This document shows positions 1-61,959 of a DNA stretch of 64,000 nucleotides, one piece after another. This stretch comes from Squalus acanthias (taxonomy: Eukaryota): NCBI GenBank assembly GCA_030390025.1, contig CM059440.1, forward strand, positions 24,552,001-24,616,000. Reading direction: 5' to 3'. Each line of letters starts with the position of its first letter. The first letter of the stretch is position 1. Both the position numbers and the translations under genes were made by a program. The notes under the pieces were generated by a model, which saw only the letters and a program-made list of their open reading frames with translations, was not told the origin of the DNA and did no database searches.

Positions 1-214
1 AACCTCTCCGCCTCGCTACCTCTCTTTCCTCCTTTAAGACGCTCCTTAAAACCAACCTTTTTGACCAAGCTTTTGGTCACCTGCCCTAATTTATCCTTAT
101 GTGGATCGGTGTCAAATTTTATTTTTTGCCTTGAAATACTCCTGTGCAGCGCCTTGGGACGTTTTACTATGTTAAAGGCACTATATAAATACAAGTTGTT
201 GTTGTTGTTGTTGT
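1..214 (+). mobile_element. 3' end of an L2-type LINE/SINE with (GTT)n tail
   Basis: gcgccttgggac..aaaggcactatataaatacaagttgttgttg; this tail is shared with the SINE copies at 31541 and 31975. Confidence 0.6.
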
Positions 215-1037: not shown

Positions 1038-1487
1038 AGGTGGGTGATGGGTTGAGGATGGGCGGGTGGTGGGCTGAGGATGGGCGGGGGTGGGTTGAGG
1101 ATGGGCGGGGGTGGGTTGAGGATGGGCGGGTGGTGGGTTGAGGATGGGCGGGTGGTGGGTTGAGGATGGGTGGGGGTGGATTGAGGATGGCTGGGTGGTG
1201 GGTTGAGGATGGGCGTAGGTGGTGGGTTGAGGATGGGTGGGTGGTGGGTTGAGGATGGCTGGGTGGTGGGTTGAGGATGGCTGGGTGGTGGGTTGAGGAT
1301 GGGCGGGTGGTGGGTTGAGGATGGGTGGGGGTGGGTTGAGGAATGCTGGGTGGTGGGTTGAGGATGGCCGGGTGGTGGGTTGAGGATGGGCGGGTGGTGG
1401 GTTGAGGATGGGTGGGTGGTGGGTTGAGGATGGGCGGGTGGTGGGTTGAGGATGGGCGGGTGGTGGGTTGAGGATGGGTGGGTGATG
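1038..1487 (+). repeat. G-rich 22-bp minisatellite (GGGTTGAGGATGGGCGGGTGGT)n, about 20 units
   Basis: Directly visible tandem array; accounts for the spurious ORF 1009..1512. Confidence 0.95.
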
Positions 1488-1562
1488 GCTCTAGATGAAG
1501 TGTAAATGGCATTGTCAGAATGAAAGACAGATGCCTTGCACCATCTCTTAATCTCTCTTAAT

Positions 1563-2306
1563 GGGCCAAAAATTCATCCCGCGACGCGAGAGTACGCACT
1601 GCGTACTCTCGCGTATTCCCACTCCAATTGCCGGTTTTCTGCATGCCCTGCGCATGCGCTGAAAACCGGCAATTGGTCTTTTGAAAAGGGGGCGGTTCCT
1701 CGGTGCATCGCGTGCGCGCTACAGGCTGCGTGCACGCTGTGCACTTCATGCTTTGGACGCGCAGGTAAGTACGGAAGATTTTAGAAATGGAAAAAGGAGG
1801 AGTAAGACCCACGTTTAACAAGGTAAGTAGTGAATTAAGTATTTTTTTGAATTTTTTTTAACAGGTATATCTTTTTTAGAGACTTTAAAGACAGGTAAGT
1901 TTATTTTTATAACTTTTTAAAAGATTTTAAATTTTTTCAAAAATTTTATTTTTTATTTACAATGGTTAATTTATTTAACTATACTTATTTTATTAATGTG
2001 ATGGGTTTTTTTTTAAATTTAATTGAGGTTTAGCTGTTATTTTGGGGGGGTGTAAGATTCATAGATTTCACAGCACGTATGTGAAACTTATGAATGGAAG
2101 ATGGTGTGCTGCCATTGGCTCTAACTGAGTCACGTGATCCCACAGCTCGCACGAATTCACTACGCCGGTGGGATACGCAAGCACTGCCCAGCTGATGTCT
2201 GGAACATCAAGTTCGTGCGAGCTGGATCTGAAAAAGCACAAGCGGAGTGAGAGATCGCGGGGAAGCCTTACCCCCGCGGGAACAGAGCGAGATCAATTTC
2301 TGGGCC
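1563..2306. mobile_element. MITE-like non-autonomous DNA transposon (GGGCC.. termini), inserted into a Penelope 3' fragment
   Basis: Imperfect TIRs gggccaaaaatt / aatttctgggcc with AAT on both sides; interrupts ctctcttaat|gtctcttaatc, which is seen intact around 2405-2425. Confidence 0.65.
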
Positions 2307-2634
2307 AATTGTCTCTTAATCTCTCCTGCCTTCCATCTAGAGCCATCTTTTGTTTCTCAACTTGTGCCATTACCATCTCCTTTTGCCTTGCACCATCTCT
2401 TAATCTCTCTTAATGTCTCTTAATCTCTCCTGCCTTCCATCCTATCACAGACCTTCCCTTTTGTTCTTTCCTCCCCTCCCCCCTTTCCCGGCCCCTGCAC
2501 TTGCTTAAAAATCTGTTCCATCTCCAGCTTTTTCCAGTTCTGACGAAGGGTCATCGACCTGAAACGTTAACTCTGTTTCTCTCTCCACAGATGCTGCCTG
2601 ACCTGCTGAGTATTTCCAGCATTTTCTGTTTTTA
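2307..2634 (+). mobile_element. Penelope-like element 3'/pLTR fragment containing a hammerhead motif (2536-2572)
   Basis: Homologous to the reverse complement of 55540-56040; also continues at 1488-1562 on the other side of the MITE. Confidence 0.8.
2536..2572 (+). ncRNA. Minimal type I hammerhead ribozyme motif
   Basis: agtt-CTGACGA-[agggtcatcgacct]-GAAAC-GT-T-aact: intact core, helix II hairpin, palindromic ACGT helix III, helix I agtt/aact. Confidence 0.75.
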
Positions 2635-2644
2635 ATTAGATAAA

Positions 2645-2867
2645 TCTATCTTTTTTGGAGGTTTTGATTGAGGGACAAAGGTTGACCAGGACACCAGGAT
2701 ACACAAGAATATGTATTCTTCACATAGTATCATAGGATCTTTTAGATCCATGTAAACAGGCAGACAAGGTCTTGGTTTAACATCTCATCCAAAAGACATC
2801 ACTTCCTACAGTGCAGCACTCCTGCAGTACTGTACTGAGTGTTATCATAGATTATGTGTTCAAATCC
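2645..2867 (-). mobile_element. DeuSINE/SacSINE1-like fragment (followed by a CR1 3' tail at 2868-2958)
   Basis: Similar to 32150-32370 (ttgattgaggg..ggtttaac..cagtgcagcact..cagtactg). Confidence 0.6.
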
Positions 2868-3960
2868 AGTGGGACTAACTGAATTGCTCTTCGAAAGAGC
2901 TGGCGCAGACTTGATGGGCCGAATGGCCTCCTTCTGTGCTGTACTATTCTATGATTCTAAGGCTTAGGCAGTTGAGACCCTATAAGAGAGGTCTAAAATT
3001 TGGAAACCAAAATATCAAATGTGGATTCAGGTGAAGTGGAGTCAGAGGGTGGGGGATGATTGAACCAGGGCGAGCAGACATAATTTAATCCCTATTTTAA
3101 AGCCATACATTCTAATACTTTATTATTATATATAGTTAAATAGCAAGACTTACTACAATTTAGAAAGCGGAATTGAATGGTTGAAAGATGGGAGTTTCTC
3201 TGTAGTACAGGCTGAGGAGCTGGGAGGTGCAAAACTGCGGTGCTAGTGTATGGCAGGAGGATATAATTATAGCATGACATATTTACACAGGCAGATTCAT
3301 TTATAAATGTGGACATTTATAATTTATAATCAAAATAGTTGGCAAAAACATGACACCAGGAAGTAAAGGTTTATTAAATAGGAAGTGCATGCAGATGTAA
3401 GGCTTTTAATATATTATATATATGTATTATATCATTGTTAATTATTTGTTTGTTTGCCTTTTGTGGGATAAATCACTGAATAATTTATCATTAAAATGAG
3501 GCCAGATGTTGTGCTGCTCTATAACTTATCGAAGTTGGCAGAAATCCTATAGAGGCACAGAATAATTAGAGTAGTTAAAAATGTAACCGTGAGTTTGGGC
3601 TGGGTGGATGTTGGATTGAGGATAGATAGGTGTTGCCAGATATAACATGCTGAATTGTGATTGATGTCGCAGTCTATGTCTGCGAGGGACACGAAGGTGA
3701 CATTCTTTATTTACACTTTCACAGACAATTGCTTCCACCTTTAACAAGAGACTAATTGGGAAGATAACCTGTTGGGGAGGGGATGCTGAACTGGGATAGA
3801 CTGATGATAAGAGAAAGCAGAGAGAGATTGTTAAAGCAAAATGTTCAGAGTGTTACTTGGCGGAGAGCCAGAAGAATTGGTTCCTGCTCTTAACCTTTGG
3901 TCTCAGATGAGGTGATATTTGGGGTAAAAATTTGTAATGGCTCATTTCTGGGCATATAAC

Positions 3961-4135
3961 TGAGGCTCAGTCGTTGAGTACATTCAAGACAGAGATCGAT
4001 AGATTTTTGAATATTAAGGGGATATGGGGATAGTTCAGGAAAGTGGAGTTGAGGTAGAAGATCAGCCATGATCTTATTGAGTGGCGGAGCAGGCTCAAAG
4101 GGCCAAATGGCCTGCTCCTGCTCCTATTTCTTATG
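3961..4135 (+). mobile_element. CR1 LINE 3' fragment
   Basis: gatcagccatgatc..ggcggagcaggctcaaagggccaaatggcc..cctgctcct tail, same type as 34990-35060. Confidence 0.75.
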
Positions 4136-5701
4136 GCATGCTTCCACCTGCTCCAGGAGGCCCAAGGATCTACACAAATTGGGCCTCAGGCCATTGTAAT
4201 AATAGTGGCAAGTTGCCAGGGCCTGCCTCCAGAGGCAGTTCGCTGGTGCACCGGGAGCCAATTTAGCCCATTTGCCTCACTGGCTGCAGCCCTCAGGTAA
4301 GTCCTTAAAGGGCGGGCGGGGAGGAAGGAATAACAACCAAAAAACTGCAAGTGCCAGGAACATTTTGCAGATCAGTTAGCATCTGTTGAGAGAACCAATT
4401 TCTTCAGTTCTGATAAAGGTTTGCATAATGTGGCATTCCAACTATTCTAGGTGCAACTTGTGTTATCATGACTCAAGAACGTCCAGGAGCTGAGAGTGAC
4501 CCCTATTGTCTCCTTTCCCTCACACATTGATGTCATTCAGCTGGTCTGTTTGACCAGTAAATAAACCTTGTTTGGGAATCTGAGTCTGACATTTTTTGCA
4601 GCGAGCCTCTCAGCAGTGCTAACACGGGACACAGTGGAAGCTTTGATCCCCATCAGGGGGCGGGGGGTGGGGGGGGGGGGTTCTTTCCAAGCAAAAAGTG
4701 TTGGGGGTCTTTAAAAACGTTTAAACAAAGGAAGCAGAAGTTTGTGGTGCATTGCACCGATCAGAAAGATTTCTGATAAATGCACTGGTCAGTCACTCAC
4801 AACCAGGGCATCAGTGGGGCAGTATAACTGGCCCTGGTGTCCCTGAGCTGGGGAGGAGTAAAAGAAACCAGTTAGGATCCACGACACATGCACAAGAGTA
4901 TGACCGGGTCTAAATTTCTCTGTTGGCATTTTGAAGTGTTGTACAGACACTCTTCAGGCCACCCACCTGCACCCCACAGCTGTAATAAACGTGGTGCAAA
5001 AAAAGGAGTCAAAGTCCATTGTATACGAGCAAGGTTTGAGAAAGACAAGGTACATCTAAAAGTGGTGGTTGGCAGACTGCCAGGCCTGGCTTTTAAACAC
5101 CTTTAGATCGTAGGAGGAAGGGATGAGGAATTCACAGTAATGAGGCACTGCAAAAGTAGGAGATGGTGCGATAAATCTCGATTTCAACACGGTAAGGGAG
5201 GAGCATCTAGGATGGTGCTTCGGAGGAACAAGACAAAAAAGGTCAAAGGAACAGTGAACTTAGTTTCCAAAGAAAAATGGAGACAGGTTGGAGACGACGG
5301 AAAAGTGGATAACTTGACTCAGGTGTTGGGTTCGCTCCAGCTTTTCAAACTCAGAATTAAATTCTCCCCAAAGCTTTAAAACTACCTGCCCGGGCCTGTC
5401 GGCTCGCCGCTAATGACAGGGCAAGTCAGAGTGCAGTATGTGGGAACAGCAGAGTTCTCAGGCTCCTCGTCTCCTCCCAGTCCCGGGCTGGCAGCCAAAG
5501 CCCCGCCCCCTGAAACTGACACACAGCCCAGGAATGTCGGCCGCCCGCTGATTGGATGTCTCCAGGTAGATTTGTATTGTTCAATGGGGAGGGGGGCGGG
5601 TACCGCTGACGTCACTGGGGAATGAATGAAAGTTTGGCAAAAGTTTCCTCAAAGTTTCAATTGAAGTTTGCTCGCGTCCGGAACGGCGGCCCGCATTCAG
5701 C

Positions 5702-53217
<47,516 letters not shown>

Positions 53218-55050
53218 ACTCTTCCTGCACCCCAGGGGGTAAAACCCCCCCAAAACCTTTTTCAAACGACTTGCAATACTTGAATGGGACAATGATTATG
53301 TACTTGAGAATGCTGAAGGGATCTGGCGCTGGAGAGAAACTCGGTTCTTTTTTTAAATTTGGAGGAGAAAAAAAAAGGGAACCAGGTGGACTTCATGACT
53401 TCTCTCTTCCAGTTTTTGGGATTCCCACTGGCGAGGGTCCAACACGACTCTGTACTGGGAGGACGGGGAGCCTTCCAGAAGCCCTTGAGCTGAAGTGGCC
53501 ATAATTGAATTGCTGAGTAGGTGCTGTGTGTGTGTGTGCGTGGAGGGAATCAACTGGTTCATTTGGATCCAAACAGCATTCAGTTCTATTGGGCAGTGTG
53601 TAGTTTAATCAGTACATTGTAGATTGGTTTATTGGCTTCATCCTTTTAGGAGCAACAGGGGACCCCCCCCCCCCCAGTGCCCAATAATAGGACTGTCACA
53701 GGGCATGCCTCCTTATCTAACCCCATCTTCAGAGTTTCTTTTATATTAAAGTTGAGACTCTCTCAGGAAACATTTATTTTTTTTGAACTCTACATTTCCT
53801 ATTTCTTAGGGTTTGATGCACCAGCTTGATGTTAGCAAACTTGATGGAGTTTAAACCAGACCAAGTTTAATAGATGGCGTGTAGAACACTAATTCAATGA
53901 CTGTATAAATGTAATTTTTGCAAACTTTAAGCATGTTTATAATGCCATTTTAAACTCTAGAAATGATGTGGCAGTCAAGCCACGACTGGCTGAAGCGCAC
54001 ACATCATTTCTCAGTTGGCTGACCCTGCTAATCCTTTCATCGGGCCCTAATGAATGATTTCCACATGTAATGGTGCATTCCCAATCTCCCACGATTTAGG
54101 CTGGAACATGCTTGGTGCCCATGAAAGATGATGGTCAAACAGTTAGAACACACTACCACACAATGGGGCACTGGATACGTTCTCTGGATGTTGGGCTAGT
54201 GTTTAAAATCCAATGAGAGCACTATTGCCAGTCGGGCAATATTTCATATGTATAATGAGGGGCGGGTTTTCCTACCACATCCAAATGATGGCAGTCATGA
54301 GCCTCTCAGCCAGTTCAAAGACTACCTCTACCCACTCCTGGAGGTGCAGTGATGGGTACTATGACTGTTAATACAAGCGGCCAACAATGCACCATATTGC
54401 TAAATCCCAACGGTAAACTCTCCTGAAATTCAGTGTATGATCTCCATGTCCTGCAAACATTCCCATTTCAGAGGTTCCCTCTCCCGATGTCTGTGTGTAA
54501 TTGTAACGCACTTCCGTAATGATCCATAAACAAAATAGCAATAAAGACGATGTAGCTCGTTGTCTGGGGGGGGTGGGGGGGGGGAGTTTTGCACACAACA
54601 TTATTGGTGGGTGGGGGGGAATCCTTTTTTCCAAATCCGGGTTATTTTTTAAATTAAAAACAAAAAAGAAAGTGAATTTGCACAGCCTGAATTTTATTTC
54701 CTGATTTATAGGAATCTGACAGATATATATATATATATTTTGTAAATCTTTTCAGAAATAGTTTGAGATAGAAACTTTTGCTTTTTTTTTAAAAAAAGGA
54801 AAAATATGATGTTTAATTTAAGCTGTATTTATTCTGCGCTTTCCTACCTGACTCTCTCTTATTTATTTAACTCTGAATTTAATTTTCTTGCCTTTGGCTG
54901 CAAGTGTGTGATTTTACTCTTTATTGTCTTTAATTTGCTTGTATTTAGAAAATGATTTATTTATTCAGACCAAAACGAATGGAGCCTATGGAAAGGCTCC
55001 CTGTCCAGGAGTTTTTTTATAATAAAAGCTGGTGTACTGGTATAGAGTTT
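53218..55050 (+). other. EPHA2 3' UTR (probable extent) with AU-rich elements
   Basis: Repeat-free stretch after the stop codon, ATTTA clusters at 54820-54965, ending near AATAAA at 55021. Confidence 0.65.
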
Positions 55051-55070
55051 CCTGTGATTTTTTTTCCTCT
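55021..55070 (+). terminator. Probable polyadenylation signal AATAAA with downstream GU/U-rich element
   Basis: AATAAA 55021-55026 preceded by a U-rich run and followed by gtttcctgtgattttttttt; an alternative AATAAA lies at 54540-54545. Confidence 0.6.
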
Positions 55071-55532
55071 TGCTTTAATGTACGTTGGGGACAGTGCAAG
55101 TTTCTGCTGCCATTTGAGATTACACCGACGTAATGAAATGGTAAATAAATCCCAAAGCCTGGTGCAGATGCACAAACAGTCTGCCAAGTTTGCATAGTGG
55201 AATTTTTGCAGCATCGCCCTCTTGGTATGAATGTCAAGGACGTCGAGGTGGCTGGTACATTGCAAGCTTCCTGCATATAGGTCCTTCCATCAGGCTGAAG
55301 GCAGATCTCTATCAAACAGCTGATGAGGAAACTCCCTGAGGCTGGGTATATGAATGGACACTCAAATATCCAGGGTTCAGTGCCAACCAGTGACTTGAGT
55401 TGAAGAGAGGCAAAGAGTCACTGATGAAACTATAGTGTATGTGTGTGTCCATGCTGTGGCCTACCGGTGGAAGTAGCCCTGTCCCTGGTTGCTAGGATTT
55501 CCCAATAAGCAAGCCAATACCCAAACATTTAA

Positions 55533-58041
55533 TACGATAGCAAAATACTGCGGATGCTGGAAATCCGAAATGACAACAGAAAACGCTGGAAAAACTCAGC
55601 AGGCCAGGCAGCATCCGTGGAGAGAGAAACAGAGTTAACGTTTCAGGTCGAAGACCTTTCGTCAGAACTGGAAAAAAGCAGGAAATGAAATAGATTTTAA
55701 AGCAAGTATAATGCTGGGAAAAGGGGGAGGGGATGAAAGAACAAAAGGGAAGGTCAGGGTAGGATAGAAAGCAGGAGAGATTAAGAGATAGCAAAATACT
55801 GCAGATGCTGGAAATCTGAAATAACAACAGAAAACGCTGGAAAAACTCAGCAGGCCAGGCAGCATCCGTGGAGAGAGAAAGAGAGTTAACGTTTCAGGTC
55901 GATGACCTTTCGTCAGAGATTAAGAGACATTGAGAGACATTAAGAGATATTCAAGGCAAGAGGAGGTGGTAATGGGACAGGTTGAGGAACAAAGGATGGC
56001 TCTAGATGAAGTGTGAAATGCGCTGGCAGAATGAAGGACAGCTGCCAACTTCTGGGAGGGAAAAAAAAGGCCAAACAAAAGGGTGGATAAAAAAAATGTA
56101 TATATGTGATGGGGGCCGGGGTTATGATCTGAAATTGTTGAACTCTATGTTGAGTCCAGAGGGCTGTAGAGTGCCTAAACGAAAGATGAGGTGCTGTTCC
56201 TCGAGCTTACGCTGAGCTTCCGTGGAACAATGCAAGAGGCCGAGGATGGTGAGGTCAGAGTGGGAGTGGAGCGGAGAATTAAAGTGACAGGCCACCGGGA
56301 GCTCGGGGTCCCCCTTACGGACTGAATGGAGGTGTTCCGCAAAGCAGTCACCCAATCTGCGTTTGGTCTCCCCAATGTAGAAGAGACTGCATCGTGAGCA
56401 GCGAATACAGTATACTAAATTGCAGGAACTACAAGTAAATCGCTGTTTCACCTGGAAGGGGTGTTTGGGGGCCTGGACAGTGGGAAGCGGGGAGGTATAA
56501 GGGCATGTGTTGCATCTCCTGCGCTTGCACGGGAAGGTGCCGGGCGAAGGGGAAGGGGTGCTGGGGGTGGTAGAGGAGTGGACTAGGGTGTCGCGGAGGG
56601 AGCGGTCCCTACGGAATGCTGAAAGGGGAGGTGAGGGGAAGATGCGTTTTGTGGTGGGATCACGCTGGAGATGGCGGAGGATGATCCGTTGAATGTGGCG
56701 GCTGGTGGGGTGAAAGGTGAGGACAAGGGGAACTCTATCGTGGTTCCGGGAGGGAGGGGCAGAAGTGCGGGAGATAGAACGGACACGGTCGAGGGCCGTG
56801 TCAACCACAGTAGAGGGGAATCCTCGGTTGAGGAAAAAGGAAGACATGTCGGAAGCACTGGTATGGAAGGTGGTATCGTCAGAGCAGATGCGGCGGAGAC
56901 GGAGAAACTGGGAGAATGGAATAGAGTCCTTACAGGAGGTGGGGTGGGAGGAAGTGTAGTCCAGGTAGCTGTGGGAGTCAGTGGGCTTGTAGTGAATGTT
57001 TGTCAATAACCTATCCCCAGAGATGGAGATGGAGAAGTCGAGGAAGGGAAGGGAAGAGTCGGAGATGGACTATGTGAAGGTGAGGGAAGGGTGGAAATTG
57101 GAAGCATAGTGAATGAAATTTTCTAGTTCAGGGCGAGAGCAGGAGAAGGCACCGATAGTCATCAATGTACCAGAAAAAGAGGTGAGGGAGGGGACCAGAG
57201 TAGGACTGGAACAAAGAGTGTTCCACATATCCCAGGAAAAGGCAGGCATAGCTAGGACCCATGTGGGTACCCATAGCAACACCTTTGATTTGGAGGAAAT
57301 GAGTGGAGTCAAAGGAGAAGTTGTTCAATGTGAGAACAAGTTCAGCCAGGCGGAGGAGGGTGGTGGTGGATGGGGACTGGTTGGGCCTCTGTTCAAGGAA
57401 GAAGCGGAGCGCCCTCAGGCCATCCTGGTGGGGGATGGAGGTGTAGAGGGATTGTATGTCCATAGTGAAAAGGAGGCGGTTGGGGCCGGGAAACTGGAAA
57501 CTGTTAAATTGGCGGAGGGCATCAGAAGACTCGCGGATGTAGGTGGGAAGAGACTGGACAAGGGGAGAAAAAATAGAGTTGAGATAGGAAGAGATAAGTT
57601 CCGTGGGGCAAGAACAGGCTGAAACGATGGGTCTACCAGGGCAGTCCTGTTTGTGGATCTTGGGAAGGAGGTAGAAGCGGGCTGTGCGGGGTTAGGGAAC
57701 TATGAGGTTGGCGGCCGTGGGGGGAAGATCTCCAGAGGAGATGAGGTCAGTGACAGTCTTGGAAACGGTGGCTTGATGTTCGGTAGTGGGGTCATGGTCC
57801 AGGTGGAGGTAGGAGGAGGTGTTGGAGAGTTGGCGTTCAGCTTCCGTTAGGTAGAGGTCGGTTCGCCAAACAACAACAGCACCACCCTTGTCAGCAGGTT
57901 TAATGACAATGTCGGGGTTGGATCTGAGAGAATGGAGTGCTGCAAGTTCAGAGGGAGGTAGGTTGGAGTGAGTGAGGGGAGCAGAGAAATGGAGACGGCC
58001 GATGTCACGGCGGCAGTTTGCAATGACAAGATCGAGATCCA
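55533..58041 (-). mobile_element. Penelope-like retroelement (RT + C-terminal GIY-YIG endonuclease), 5'-truncated and decayed, with a tandem 3' pLTR
   Basis: IKPADKGG, MDIQSLYTSI, QIKGVAMGT, YIDD; CxxxxCxxC and VYCIRC..YIGET endonuclease motifs; frameshift after YIDD, internal stops; 14-bp TSD ACCC(A/G)AACATTTAA at 55519 and 58042. Confidence 0.93.
55633..55669 (-). ncRNA. Minimal hammerhead ribozyme motif in the Penelope pLTR (a second core at 55884-55916 lacks the 5' strand of helix I)
   Basis: Reverse complement reads agtt-CTGACGA-aaggtcttcgacct-GAAAC-GT-T-aact. Confidence 0.75.
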
Positions 58042-58113
58042 ACCCGAACATTTAAGGTGGTCCTAGCTAGACAAGTGGTGAGAAACTCATCAGCGCTCTG
58101 TACTAGTGAGCAA

Positions 58114-59523
58114 TCATTGAATCTTGCAGCATGGGAGGCCATTCACCCCATCAGGCCTGTGGCGGCTCTTTGAAAGAGCTCTCCAATTAGTCCAAATCCC
58201 CCGCTCTTTCCTCATAGCTCTGCAAATTTTTCCTTTTCAGGTATATATCCAATTTCCTTTTGAAAGTTACTATTCAATCGGCTTCCACCACCCTTTCAGG
58301 CAGTGCATTCCAGACATAACCGCTCATTGTGTAAAAGAATTCATCCTCATCACCCCTGTGGTTCTTTTGACAATTATCTTAACAGAGTGATTATCCACAC
58401 GAACACTTTTGTAGCCTTCTGCGCAAGCGCATTGTTTCCAGGAGCCGCACATGCATTACCCAACTATTGTGGCCTGCAGCATAGGCCACGCTTTCATTGG
58501 CTGCGTAAGGAGAAGAGAGAGGGGATCAGAGGGGGGAGAGACTGGAGGAAGAGAGAGGGATCGGGGAGGGAGAGAGGGGTGGGGAGAAGAGAGAGGGATG
58601 AGGGGGAGAGAGAGGGGGTCGGGGAAGAGAGAGGGATGAGGGAGAGAGAGGGGGTCGGGGAAGAGAGAGGGATGAGGGAGAGAGAGAGGGATGAGGGAGA
58701 GGGGGTTGGGGAAGAGGGGGATGAGGGAGAGAGAGGGGTGGGGGAAGAGAGGGATGAGGGAGAGAGGGGGTCGGGGAAGAGAGAGGGATGAGGGGGTCGG
58801 GGAAGAGAGAGGGATGAGGGGGTCGGGGAGAGAGGGGGTTGGGGAGAGAGAGGGGGGAGTCGGGAAGAGGGATGAGGGAGAGAGGGATGAGGGAGAGAGG
58901 GGGGTCGGGGAAGAGAGGGATGAGGGAGAGAGGGGGGGTCGGGGAAGAGAGGGATGAGGGAGAGAGAGGGGGTCGGGGAAGAGGGATGAGGGAGAGAGAG
59001 AGAGGGGGTCGGGGAGAGAGGGATGGGAGAGAGAAGCTCGAAAGGGGGGGAAGAGAGAGGATCGGGGGAAGGGGAAGAGAGAGAGGATCGGGGGAAGGGG
59101 AGAGAGGGATCGGGGGAGAGAGAGGCTCGAAAGGGGGGAGAGAGGGATCAGGAAGAAGAGAGGGATTGGGATAAAGAGAGAGGATCGGGGGAAGGGGAGA
59201 GAGAGAGGATTGGGGGATGGGGAGAGAGGGATCGGAGGGGGAGAGAGAGGAGATCGGAGGGGAGAGAGAGAGAGGATCGGAGGGATCAGAGGGAATTGGA
59301 GGCAGAGAAACTGATGGGTGTGTCTTGTCCTCCAAGGGGACCAATCAGAAATCAGGTCTTGTCCTCCAAGGTGACCAATCAGAAATCTGGTGTTGGAAAT
59401 AAACACGACCTTATCTTAAATCATCCGTGTCCTCTGATTACCGACCCTCCCGATGGTGGAAACAGTTTCTCCCTATTTACTCTATCAAAACCCCTCATAA
59501 TTTTGAAGACCTCTATTAAATCT
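58114..59523 (-). mobile_element. CR1 3' fragment (58114-58382 + 59420-59523) split by a 1-kb insertion
   Basis: ggaggccattc..cttccaccaccctttcaggcag..caattatcttaa|atc..ggaaacagtttctccctatttactctatc; rejoins cleanly when the insert is removed. Confidence 0.8.
58383..59410. mobile_element. Unclassified insertion with 8-9 bp TSD, carrying a GA-rich minisatellite (about 58508-59300)
   Basis: TTATCTTAA at 58374-58382 and 59411-59419; internal array of (ggggtcggggaagagagagggatgagggagagag)-like units. Confidence 0.8.
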
Positions 59524-60241
59524 AATTGCAGTTTTAACTAGTTAAACCCCAGCAGTACCTCAATGCATACTTGAGGGATCTTAAGCCTTGCCTCTTGCCA
59601 CATTGCCTACATTCTGTACTTTTAGGTTAGTGGGGAGAGAGTGCACATTTTGTATCGGACAAATGGAATCTATACTTGCGTGGATTTCTCAGTAGTTTGG
59701 CTTGGAGGCTTAAGCATTCGGAATGTTTTCTGTGAGTGTTGGAACATGGCTGGTCAAAAAAATGTCCTTCATGCCTGTGTGGGATTAGTGGAGGCAGGAG
59801 TGTGAAAAACCAGTCCATTGGTGTGATCTAGGAGCTAGGGTGTGACTGATGCTGGGAGGAGTGGGGGAGAAGAGAGCAACTGCATGGGCAGTAAGGTGGC
59901 AGATGGAGTATAATGTAGGGAAATGTGAGGTTATTCACTTTGGTAGGAAAAATAGAATATTTTTTAAATGGTGAGAAACTTTCAAATGTTGGTTTTCAGA
60001 GAGAGTTGGGTGTCCTCGTGCAAGAAACATAGAAAGCTAGCATTCAGGTACAGCAAGCAATAAGGAAGGCAAATGGCATGTTGGGCTTTATTGCAAGGGG
60101 GTTGGAGTATAAGAGTAAGGAAGTCTTGCTACAATTGTACAGGGCCTTGGTGAGACCACACCTGGAGTACAGTGCACAGTTTTGGTCTCCTTATCTAAGG
60201 AAGGATATACTTGCCTTGGAAACAAAGGTTCACTAGATTAT

Positions 60242-60534
60242 GCAGCTGTCCTTCATTCTGCCAGTGGATTTCACACTTCATTCAGCCTTAATCTGTCACA
60301 TTAACACCACCTCTAGCCTTGCATATCTCTTAATGTCTCTTAATGTCTCTTCATCTCCTCCTTTGTTCCTTTATCCCCTCCCCCTTTTCCCAGCTTTACC
60401 CTGGCCTTAAATCTATTTGATTTCCAGCTCTTCCCAGTTCTGATGAAAGGTCATCGACCTGAAACGTCAACTCTCTTTCTCTCTCTACGGATGCTGCCTG
60501 GCCTGCTGAGTTTTTCCAGCGTTTTCTGTTGTTA
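60242..60534 (+). mobile_element. Penelope-derived short insert with hammerhead motif (60436-60472, GUC triplet), 13-bp TSD
   Basis: TSD TTCACTAGATTAT at 60229-60241 and 60535-60547; agtt-CTGATGA-aaggtcatcgacct-GAAAC-GT-C-aact. Confidence 0.88.
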
Positions 60535-60662
60535 TTCACTAGATTATTTCCTGGGATGAGAGGGCTGTCCTATGATGAGAGATTGTGTAGAATGGGCCTA
60601 CACTCTCTGGAGTTTAGAAGAATGAGAGGTGATCTCATTGAAACATACAAGATTCTGAAGGG

Positions 60663-60865
60663 TCTGTGAAATGTCTCTTCATCTCCCCCTTTGTTCCTTT
60701 ATCCCCTCCCCCTTTTCCCAGCTTTACCCTGGCCTTAAATCTATTTGATTTCCGGCTCTTCCCAGTTCTGATGAAAGGTCATCGACCTGAAACGTTAACT
60801 CTCTTTCTCTCTCCACGGATGCTGCCTGGCCTGCTGAGTTTTTCCAGCGTTTTCTGTTGTTATTT
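60663..60865 (+). mobile_element. Penelope-derived short insert with hammerhead motif (60764-60800), 14-bp TSD
   Basis: TSD AAGATTCTGAAGGG at 60649-60662 and 60866-60879; nearly identical to the 3' part of the 60242 insert. Confidence 0.88.
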
Positions 60866-61959
60866 AAGATTCTGAAGGGGATGGATAGGGTAGATGCTGA
60901 GAGGTTGTTTCCCCTGGCTGGAGTGTCTAGAACTAGGGGGCATAGACTCAGGATAAGGGGTCGGCCATTTAAGACTGAGATGAGGAGGAATTTCTTCACT
61001 CAGAGGGTTGTGAATCTTTGGAATTCTCTGGCCCAGAGGGCTGTGAATGCTGAGTCTTTATATATTCAAGGCTGAGATAAATAGATTTTTGGACTCTAGG
61101 GGAATCAAGGGATATGGAGATCGGGCGGGAAAGTGGAGTTGAGGTCGATGATCAGCCATGGTCTTATTTAATGGCGGAGCAGGCTCGAGGGGCCATATGG
61201 CCTACTCCTGCTCTTATTTCTTATGTTCTTATGCTTTAAAGTGAATTTTACACTTGGATCCAGATTAAGGTGGCAGCAGCCAGATGGACTGAAGCCTTAG
61301 CAGCTTTACCAATGGAGGGAAACAATTAGATAACCACTGGTGCATTGGGGGAAGGACAATGCATTGCAGCATTGTTGGATTCCTAAACCTGTGGAACTGC
61401 CAGTGAACACACTGAGAATATTGGTTTCCCATTTACCAATGAAACTGTTCCACAGTGTGATGATGCACAAGCCATTTCACAGTCTGACTCAATCTATCCT
61501 ATGACCCGGTCTTTTTGCAACTTGCCCACTCTGGTTTGTGATTCATGTAATTAGATTCCAGCCAGTATCGTCTAGTACATTTAATTAACCATTTCTTTCT
61601 GTGAGGGTAAAGCTTCAATTAACTAATCCCAACGAGCACACAACTCCGCACATCCAATAAGTGCCAGCTCTTACTAAAGCTCCTTTGTGTAAGAATTATT
61701 CAATAAGTTCCTGTTTCTCACTGCCTTTTACGATATCTGGAAAAATAACTCGGGGAGATTCTAGGTCAGGCTGGGTGGAGTAATCCACATGTGCATAGAG
61801 CACATGATTTGGTTTAACTGTTCCACGCTGCTCAGGTCTATGAACGGGCACCTCCTGTTGATTCACCATACCTCTACTGCCTGTCACGGCACATTAATGC
61901 CCCAAGGTATAACACTCCTTACCCAACTCTAGTATTTAAAATCAGATATATCTCCAAGT

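Follow-up and report, generated by a model that had tools for sequence, protein, structure and literature searches.

Six hammerhead ribozyme cores are dispersed through a 64,000-nucleotide stretch of the Squalus acanthias genome (assembly GCA_030390025.1, contig CM059440.1, forward-strand positions 24,552,001 to 24,616,000; the whole stretch is referred to here as the window), which also holds an EPHA2-like gene. Judged from their sequences, all six appear to belong to one family of Neptune-type Penelope-like elements (PLEs). A single element of this type probably accounts for copies of every size: the long copies show 5' truncation of varying extent, and the shortest ones, referred to here as stubs, are likely to be run-off complementary DNAs (cDNAs) that extend to the 5' end of the element's RNA, at the hammerhead's front edge. 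A preliminary description of the window had proposed short units, flanked by target-site duplications (TSDs), as the non-autonomous partner of an autonomous PLE, in the manner of a short interspersed nuclear element (SINE) or a retrozyme. Mobilisation of such units by the element's enzyme is borne out, but the pairing is not, as its examples are truncated copies or a fold-back and the stubs have no private haplotype. The element type and minimal hammerheads have already been published, as have fold-backs, the tail and the solo motifs that truncated PLEs leave, and the fresh point is the fixed start at the front edge of the ribozyme.

Positions in the element are given on its sense strand, with C3 of the hammerhead core as 0 and the predicted cut after +28. 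A random census covered 28 blocks of 50 kb from 18 large contigs (1.4 Mb), mapped on a natural copy (L076) that stops at +126. The 79 arms covering +55..+85 were counted; these include duplicates, four of them sharing one old insertion in another repeat, and one block holding a duplicate pair. Their 3' ends fall at +87..105 in 41 cases and at +121 or beyond in 33, with 5 in between. The two classes, at about +97 and about +130, lie some 33 nt apart and correspond to the known PLE tail, the optional 30-40-bp tail of endonuclease-bearing (EN+) PLEs. In the Poseidon element of Anolis carolinensis, this tail has been tied to two internal start sites of reverse transcriptase (RT) (PMC11167929). At the 5' side, 29 of the 79 alignments end at -12..+2, 2 at -100..-13, 25 farther upstream and 23 downstream of +2, and among arms at least 88% identical the 5' end is at -12..+2 in 18 of 31. 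The old fold-back behind the four shared arms, with the same +50/+14 junction and the same right flank, is found in blocks B00, B12, B14 and B22 (L081, L141, L151 and L191 onward), carried by another repeat family.

Since the random arms were not de-duplicated, and alignments of old subfamilies may stop at -5..-12 merely through divergence, 55 young copies were examined, chosen solely by an exact core as the first ones on contig C1. Fifteen of them start at -5..0; 13 of these share no more than 9 nt upstream with any other copy, and in the other 2 the start is given by a TSD or by the junction of a fold-back. TSD-defined ends between -6 and -100 occur in 3 of the 55, the ends of several long copies not being pinned down. 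With a start at -5..0 and an end close to +97 or +130, stubs are thus about 100 or 135 nt long, and TSDs across the family measure 10-18 bp. Genome-wide, counts of the core with added upstream bases fall from 28,034 to 25,618, 22,320, 20,858 and 16,657; retention per base is 0.93-0.96 upstream of the core, compared with 0.977 within it.

The family is large, and the Penelope-like origin and recent activity proposed for it in the preliminary description both hold. Exact 26-nt young cores number 28,034 in the genome (reverse control 0) and exact 33-nt cores 23,877, several insertions have perfect TSDs, and 20 extended loci include a pLTR-ORF-pLTR copy (L066; pseudo-long terminal repeats around an open reading frame). 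Its open frame of 1028 codons, which is no proof of activity, passes through the hammerhead region, the hammerhead lying in the pLTR and in frame with the ORF start. Another copy (L061) is a tandem with a period of 3148 bp, and partial pLTR tandems or inverted 5' copies occur in L061, L066, L071 and L078. Pfam matches of the L066 ORF to RVT_1 and GIY-YIG are both weak and below cut-off. It has 566 homologues at E<=1e-20, which carry PF00078 and PF01541, and the best named one is from bamboo shark (69%); a PDB search with the open ORF gave 0 matches. The single ORF with RT and, at its C-terminus, a GIY-YIG domain is that of an EN+ PLE. Assignment to the Neptune clade is suggested by a C-x4-C-x2-C linker and by the host: the CX2-5CxxC linker is common to Neptune and Nematis (PMC8557442), and the PLEs reported from vertebrates are only Neptune and Poseidon (bioRxiv 10.64898/2026.07.22.740005). 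Core copies with U at N7 (e.g. 60440-60446) read CUGAUGA and contain an ATG in the reading frame of the ORF. At this site C is the commoner base, found in 36 of 51 copies and giving ACG, so the T may be the result of CpG decay. Four contig sets cover 30 of 30 bins and three join the tail to the ORF start head-to-tail; their origin from RNA is a guess, contigs reveal neither starts nor strand, and they are not used as support.

A mechanism of the following kind would account for these ends. The GIY-YIG endonuclease would nick both strands, and RT, primed at the nick, would start at either of two internal sites, +97 or +130, two such sites having been measured for the anole Poseidon. If it started in the 5'-proximal sequence, it would run off after 100-135 nt and produce stubs, and from the matching sites of the downstream pLTR it would produce long, variably truncated insertions. 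Two cDNAs, or one self-primed cDNA, could be joined by microhomology to form fold-backs. Some 30 nt downstream of a TTTAAA box, transcription would start at the A of CCAGTT, and this would place the beginning of helix I at +1 of the transcript; the stubs, losing the upstream promoter, would mostly be dead ends. A TTTAAA-like box is present at -30..-33 from this A in 35 of 45 long-copy matches (overlapping loci included), and CCAGTTC agrees with the initiator consensus. TATA and Inr-like motifs have also been reported in rotifer pLTRs (PMC3846280). Whether PLEs make a 'strong-stop'-like cDNA, with an RNA that begins exactly at helix I, RT primed 100-135 nt downstream and running off the 5' end, and thousands of genomic stubs and fold-backs as the record of this step, seems to us an evenly balanced question.

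Several observations weigh against this reading of the 5' edge. The start of transcription there is placed from genomic copies, and the stub ends are ragged over 0..-6 instead of falling on one base. In a test for a cap-derived G, the base before AGTT is G in 639, A in 442 and T in 381 cases (T by subtraction), with about 10 of 20 fetched G copies explained, by eye, by TSD or fold-back microhomology. If such an RNA were simply copied in full, the insertion would start at -4, so it counts against the proposal that none of the copies in which a 5' pLTR piece leads into the ORF (L061, L066, L071, L076 and also L078) starts at this position. The last step of the genome-wide series (-8..-6) is confounded by the TCACAGTT variant. 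Penelope of D. virilis has an internal promoter (PMC2377424), and for this reason stubs might not be dead. Finally, the same upstream motifs equally fit a branch point, a pyrimidine tract and a CAG acceptor.

This last point leads to a different origin for the edge. The stubs would still be by-products of the same PLE, with a 5' edge that comes from a splice acceptor (pyrimidine tract and CAG/TT) or from RT stalling or switching template at helix I. The sequence upstream of the core does read as a good acceptor, in Penelope of D. virilis helix I marks the end of an intron (PMC4209133), the ragged ends are compatible with it, and 3 of 20 fold-back joints pass exactly through the helix I match AGTT/AACT. 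However, the 47 non-pLTR junctions share no exon sequence before TT, and many stubs keep the AG or CAG that splicing would remove (16 of the 47 match at least 4 upstream bases, some by target microhomology). By our reasoning, a stall would also be expected on entering the structure from the 3' side and not after copying all of it, and overall this origin is unlikely. The view taken in the preliminary description, that an autonomous PLE coexists with a self-propagating SINE- or retrozyme-like ribozyme cassette, draws on the existence of the discrete short class, on reports of non-autonomous PLE derivatives and PLE-derived retrozymes (PMC8557442; bioRxiv 10.64898/2026.07.22.740005) and on the internal promoter of the fly element (PMC2377424). 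That description had also reasoned that short copies of random length would be merely truncated PLEs. On this point the answer is mixed: a class of about 100 and 135 nt does exist, but it has no haplotype of its own, no start at the cleavage site and no ribozyme arrays: all five stub haplotypes occur in long copies (13 scored stubs against 42 copies at 3 sites, a small sample), and neither the window nor 77 clusters, drawn from the random 1.4 Mb and not from the whole genome, contain runs of at least 3 ribozyme units. In most stubs, helix I is incomplete or the promoter-like box upstream is missing. The longer short inserts of the window are, on their sequences, ordinary 5'-truncated copies of a coding subfamily. 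A 293-bp insert shows 100% identity to L222 and 99.3% to both L256 and L268, copies that extend 1.0-2.0 kb into the ORF (to -1033, -2039 and -1474), and is therefore a truncated coding copy and not a family of its own; a 203-bp insert matches L260 at 99.5%, and copies of the latter reach -668 and -2042. A DNA search of the genome with the 293-bp insert, in which common words are skipped, gave no matches, and its relatives come from the fetched loci. Fold-backs were compared as 37 head-to-head arm pairs within 2.5 kb, of which a few widely spaced ones may be unrelated neighbours. Their arms differ at 0.105 of diagnostic sites, compared with 0.486 for random pairs, and 21 of the 37 pairs are identical, so both arms come from one source. 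A separate cassette is thus quite improbable, and the lack of a private haplotype, of cleavage-site starts and of arrays points to by-products of the autonomous RNA. The stubs are most likely run-off cDNAs from the 5' end of the element's own RNA, and would be neither SINEs nor retrozymes.

It is harder still to credit that self-cleavage by the hammerhead, or a circular RNA template, determines where inserts end, although the motif shows conservation and a pair of monomers co-folds through its palindrome. The closing pair of helix II is A-U in 26, G-U in 20 and G-C in 2 of 51 random copies, so that pairing is kept in 46 by A-U or G-U, yet the canonical G10.1-C11.1 pair of minimal hammerhead ribozymes (min-HHRs) is found in only 2. 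H17 is U in 48 of the 51, and GUU is a poor cleavage triplet. The hammerhead fold is not the lowest-energy fold of the monomer, and stubs fold no better than their shuffles (z -1.40, 0.87 and -1.28). Only 5 of the 79 census arms begin at +26..+36, around the cleavage position (+29), and 4 of these candidate cleavage-site starts had to be rejected as copies split later by miniature inverted-repeat transposable elements (MITEs). With these splits and the shared haplotypes, a SINE-like master and ribozyme cleavage both fail to explain the insert ends. Cervera and De la Pena observed, for one min-HHR, no cleavage of the monomer and low cleavage of the dimer (PMC4209133), and Frangieh et al. found cleavage of the anole element to be protein-assisted and dispensable, ribozyme mutants leaving insertion unchanged (PMC11167929). 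The ribozyme of this family is predicted to have at best weak cleavage activity, as a dimer only or with the help of protein, and not to define insert ends. The splits themselves affect five copies (B04 L101-105, B08 L121-125, B14 L151-155, B22 L191-195 and L223) at +26..+35. The splitting MITE-like elements have GGCC..AAATT-type terminal repeats and apparent 3-bp duplications, and a similar one lies in a copy within the window; the helix III/helix I region is possibly a preferred target of a DNA transposon.

Likenesses to known systems are considerable, within those parts of the cited reports that were covered. EN+ PLEs of the Neptune clade (PMC8557442) share with this family the single ORF of RT and C-terminal GIY-YIG, the CX2-5CxxC linker, pLTRs, partial tandems, an inverted 5'-truncated copy and a 30-40-bp tail on one end; a class of stubs with a fixed start was not met for the clade in the covered part of that report. 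As in published min-HHRs, the motif has a type I core, a loop-less palindromic helix III, in 4 of the 6 window copies a 4-bp helix I, and an extra base after A9, and is mostly a solo motif of truncated PLEs. Unlike them, it has a 5-bp helix II closed by A-U or G-U instead of G10.1-C11.1 and mostly a GUU triplet. The Poseidon element of A. carolinensis (PAc; Frangieh et al. 2024, PMC11167929) belongs to a different clade. It is similar in that its hammerhead overlaps the ORF start, two classes of 3' ends bracket the tail and both strands are apparently primed, but genomic stubs with a fixed 5' edge are not described in the portion of the report considered. Initiation by PAc was reported to be non-homologous, whereas several junctions of the present family show short matches to the target. 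Non-LTR retrozymes (PMC7229834; bioRxiv 10.64898/2026.07.22.740005) are also non-coding, PLE-related and dispersed as monomers with a type I hammerhead, and they form tandem repeats with a complete ribozyme per unit and circular RNAs. This family differs from them in showing no arrays in the window or the 1.4 Mb, in its minimal and often incomplete motifs and in the colinearity of every piece with the coding element. No description of a fixed 5' edge or a strong-stop product in PLEs was found in the literature, with most subscription papers and Repbase outside the search, nor in the covered text supplements of PMC11167929.

Within the window, all six CUGANGA..GAAAC cores listed previously are present, with C3 at 2540(+), 47850(+), 55665(-), 55916(-), 60440(+) and 60768(+); the coordinates first given for them are those of helix I ends and not of C3. 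A loose hammerhead descriptor gives 7 matches, compared with 0.63 in shuffles (30 shuffles). The helix II hairpin and palindromic ACGU helix III attributed to the cores are likewise there, with a 5-bp helix II and ACGU in 6 of 6, and each core has CUGANGA, one extra A after A9, GAAA and the palindromic C-G-U (15.2-16.2 palindrome, UH). That all six are minimal type I ribozymes holds for the core architecture but is not confirmed as a whole: a 4-bp helix I (AGUU/AACU) is formed in only 4, while 47850, with 0 bp, and 55916, with 1 bp, lack its 5' strand. The cleavage triplet is GUU and not GUC in 5 of the 6. An Rfam search, suggested at the outset as a check, matched no hammerhead family at E<=1; the only matches at this threshold in the window are hairpin look-alikes at 47783-47925 and 50667-50780. 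The local excess of cores (5 exact against 0.48 expected) was considered as a sign of targeting to EPHA2 and set aside, because the window was chosen for its cores and the copies lack independence.

The individual insertions are of several kinds. The 3' part of a copy from an older subfamily, with pLTR and hammerhead and without the tail, occupies 2310..2634 (+) and carries the 2540 core, in which helix I is formed by 2536-2539/2569-2572, a G-U pair closes helix II and the triplet is GUU. It is identical to the other five window copies at 84-87 of 94 nt, and a search for its TSD found none. Its pLTR is split by a MITE-like element with terminal inverted repeats (1563..2306, the ends having been compared), beyond which a 5' remnant at 1484..1562 is made up of a small piece of inverted pLTR and then TCTCTTAAT repeats, adjoining a G-rich minisatellite of 22-nt units at 977-1526. 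At 47733..47945, in an EPHA2 intron, lies a 213-bp insertion with a perfect 15-bp TSD (47718-47732 / 47946-47960), which is a standard PLE fold-back, only one of its arms carrying the tail: the minus arm runs from +128 to about +8 with the tail, and the plus arm from 0 to +96 without it, the two agreeing at 6 of 6 diagnostic sites. This fold-back and the insertion at 55789-55914 are the window's examples of the discrete short class.

The decayed coding member of the family is confirmed at 55533..58041 (-) as a 5'-truncated PLE with the tail and a pLTR containing the 55665 core, and its 14-bp TSD (55519-55532 / 58042-58055) has one mismatch. It retains RT, the C-x4-C-x2-C linker and a GIY-YIG-type end with a stop at 56122, interrupted by stops and frameshifts, and one fragment matches RVT_1 at E 4.4e-6, which falls short of the curated cut-off. 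Inside its pLTR, a 126-nt stub (+2 to about +128) at 55789..55914 (-), flanked by a 13-bp duplication (55915-55927 / 55776-55788), creates the 55916 core and differs in haplotype from the coding copy that hosts it. What looks like a tandem pLTR is thus a separate stub insertion, overlooked in the preliminary description; other family copies have one core per pLTR. The stub sits at TCTCTTAAT repeats of its own family's pLTR, giving a direct repeat of two hammerheads 251 nt apart, and insertion of this kind may be one way in which retrozyme-like dimers arise. Just upstream of the coding copy lies a long purine-rich tandem array (58500-59280).

The 293-bp copy, at 60242..60534 (+), has pLTR and hammerhead with a GUC triplet, lacks the tail and is inserted in a CR1 long interspersed nuclear element with a perfect 13-bp TSD (60229-60241 / 60535-60547). 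The 203-bp copy, at 60663..60865 (+), lies 128 bp downstream in the same CR1 with a perfect 14-bp TSD (60649-60662 / 60866-60879), so the perfect 13-15-bp TSDs claimed for the three short inserts are all found. A paralogous CR1 copy at about 27850-28300 holds both target sites once, as empty sites. The two insertions at 60229-60879 are young and independent, although they share one CR1 copy and are separated by 128 bp. Both direct pairs of cores in the window are separate insertions, each with its own TSD.

The setting near EPHA2 is as originally described. The host gene is EPHA2-like (best PDB match EphA2, E 8.5e-111), with exons mapped from the ligand-binding to the last one at 14608..53200 (+), and serves here as context only. 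The fold-back at 47733-47945 is the sole insertion within this exon span, and no link between the insertions and EPHA2 function was found. Two inverted repeats unrelated to the hammerhead family lie at 50667-50780, with a weak microRNA-like Rfam match, and at 31701-32219, with 132-nt arms 255 nt apart.

These insertions could bear on the replication cycle of PLEs, namely on the origin of pLTRs, inverted copies and the tail and on the role of the ribozyme. The family has about 28,000 copies that are nearly identical, roughly a quarter of them starting at one 6-nt spot; it provides a sharp and inexpensive prediction for the position of the RNA 5' end, and speaks against the ribozyme as what sets insert ends. 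If true, a strong-stop-like cDNA would explain the origin of inverted pLTRs and solo hammerheads, and any stubs that keep an internal promoter would be raw material for retrozymes.

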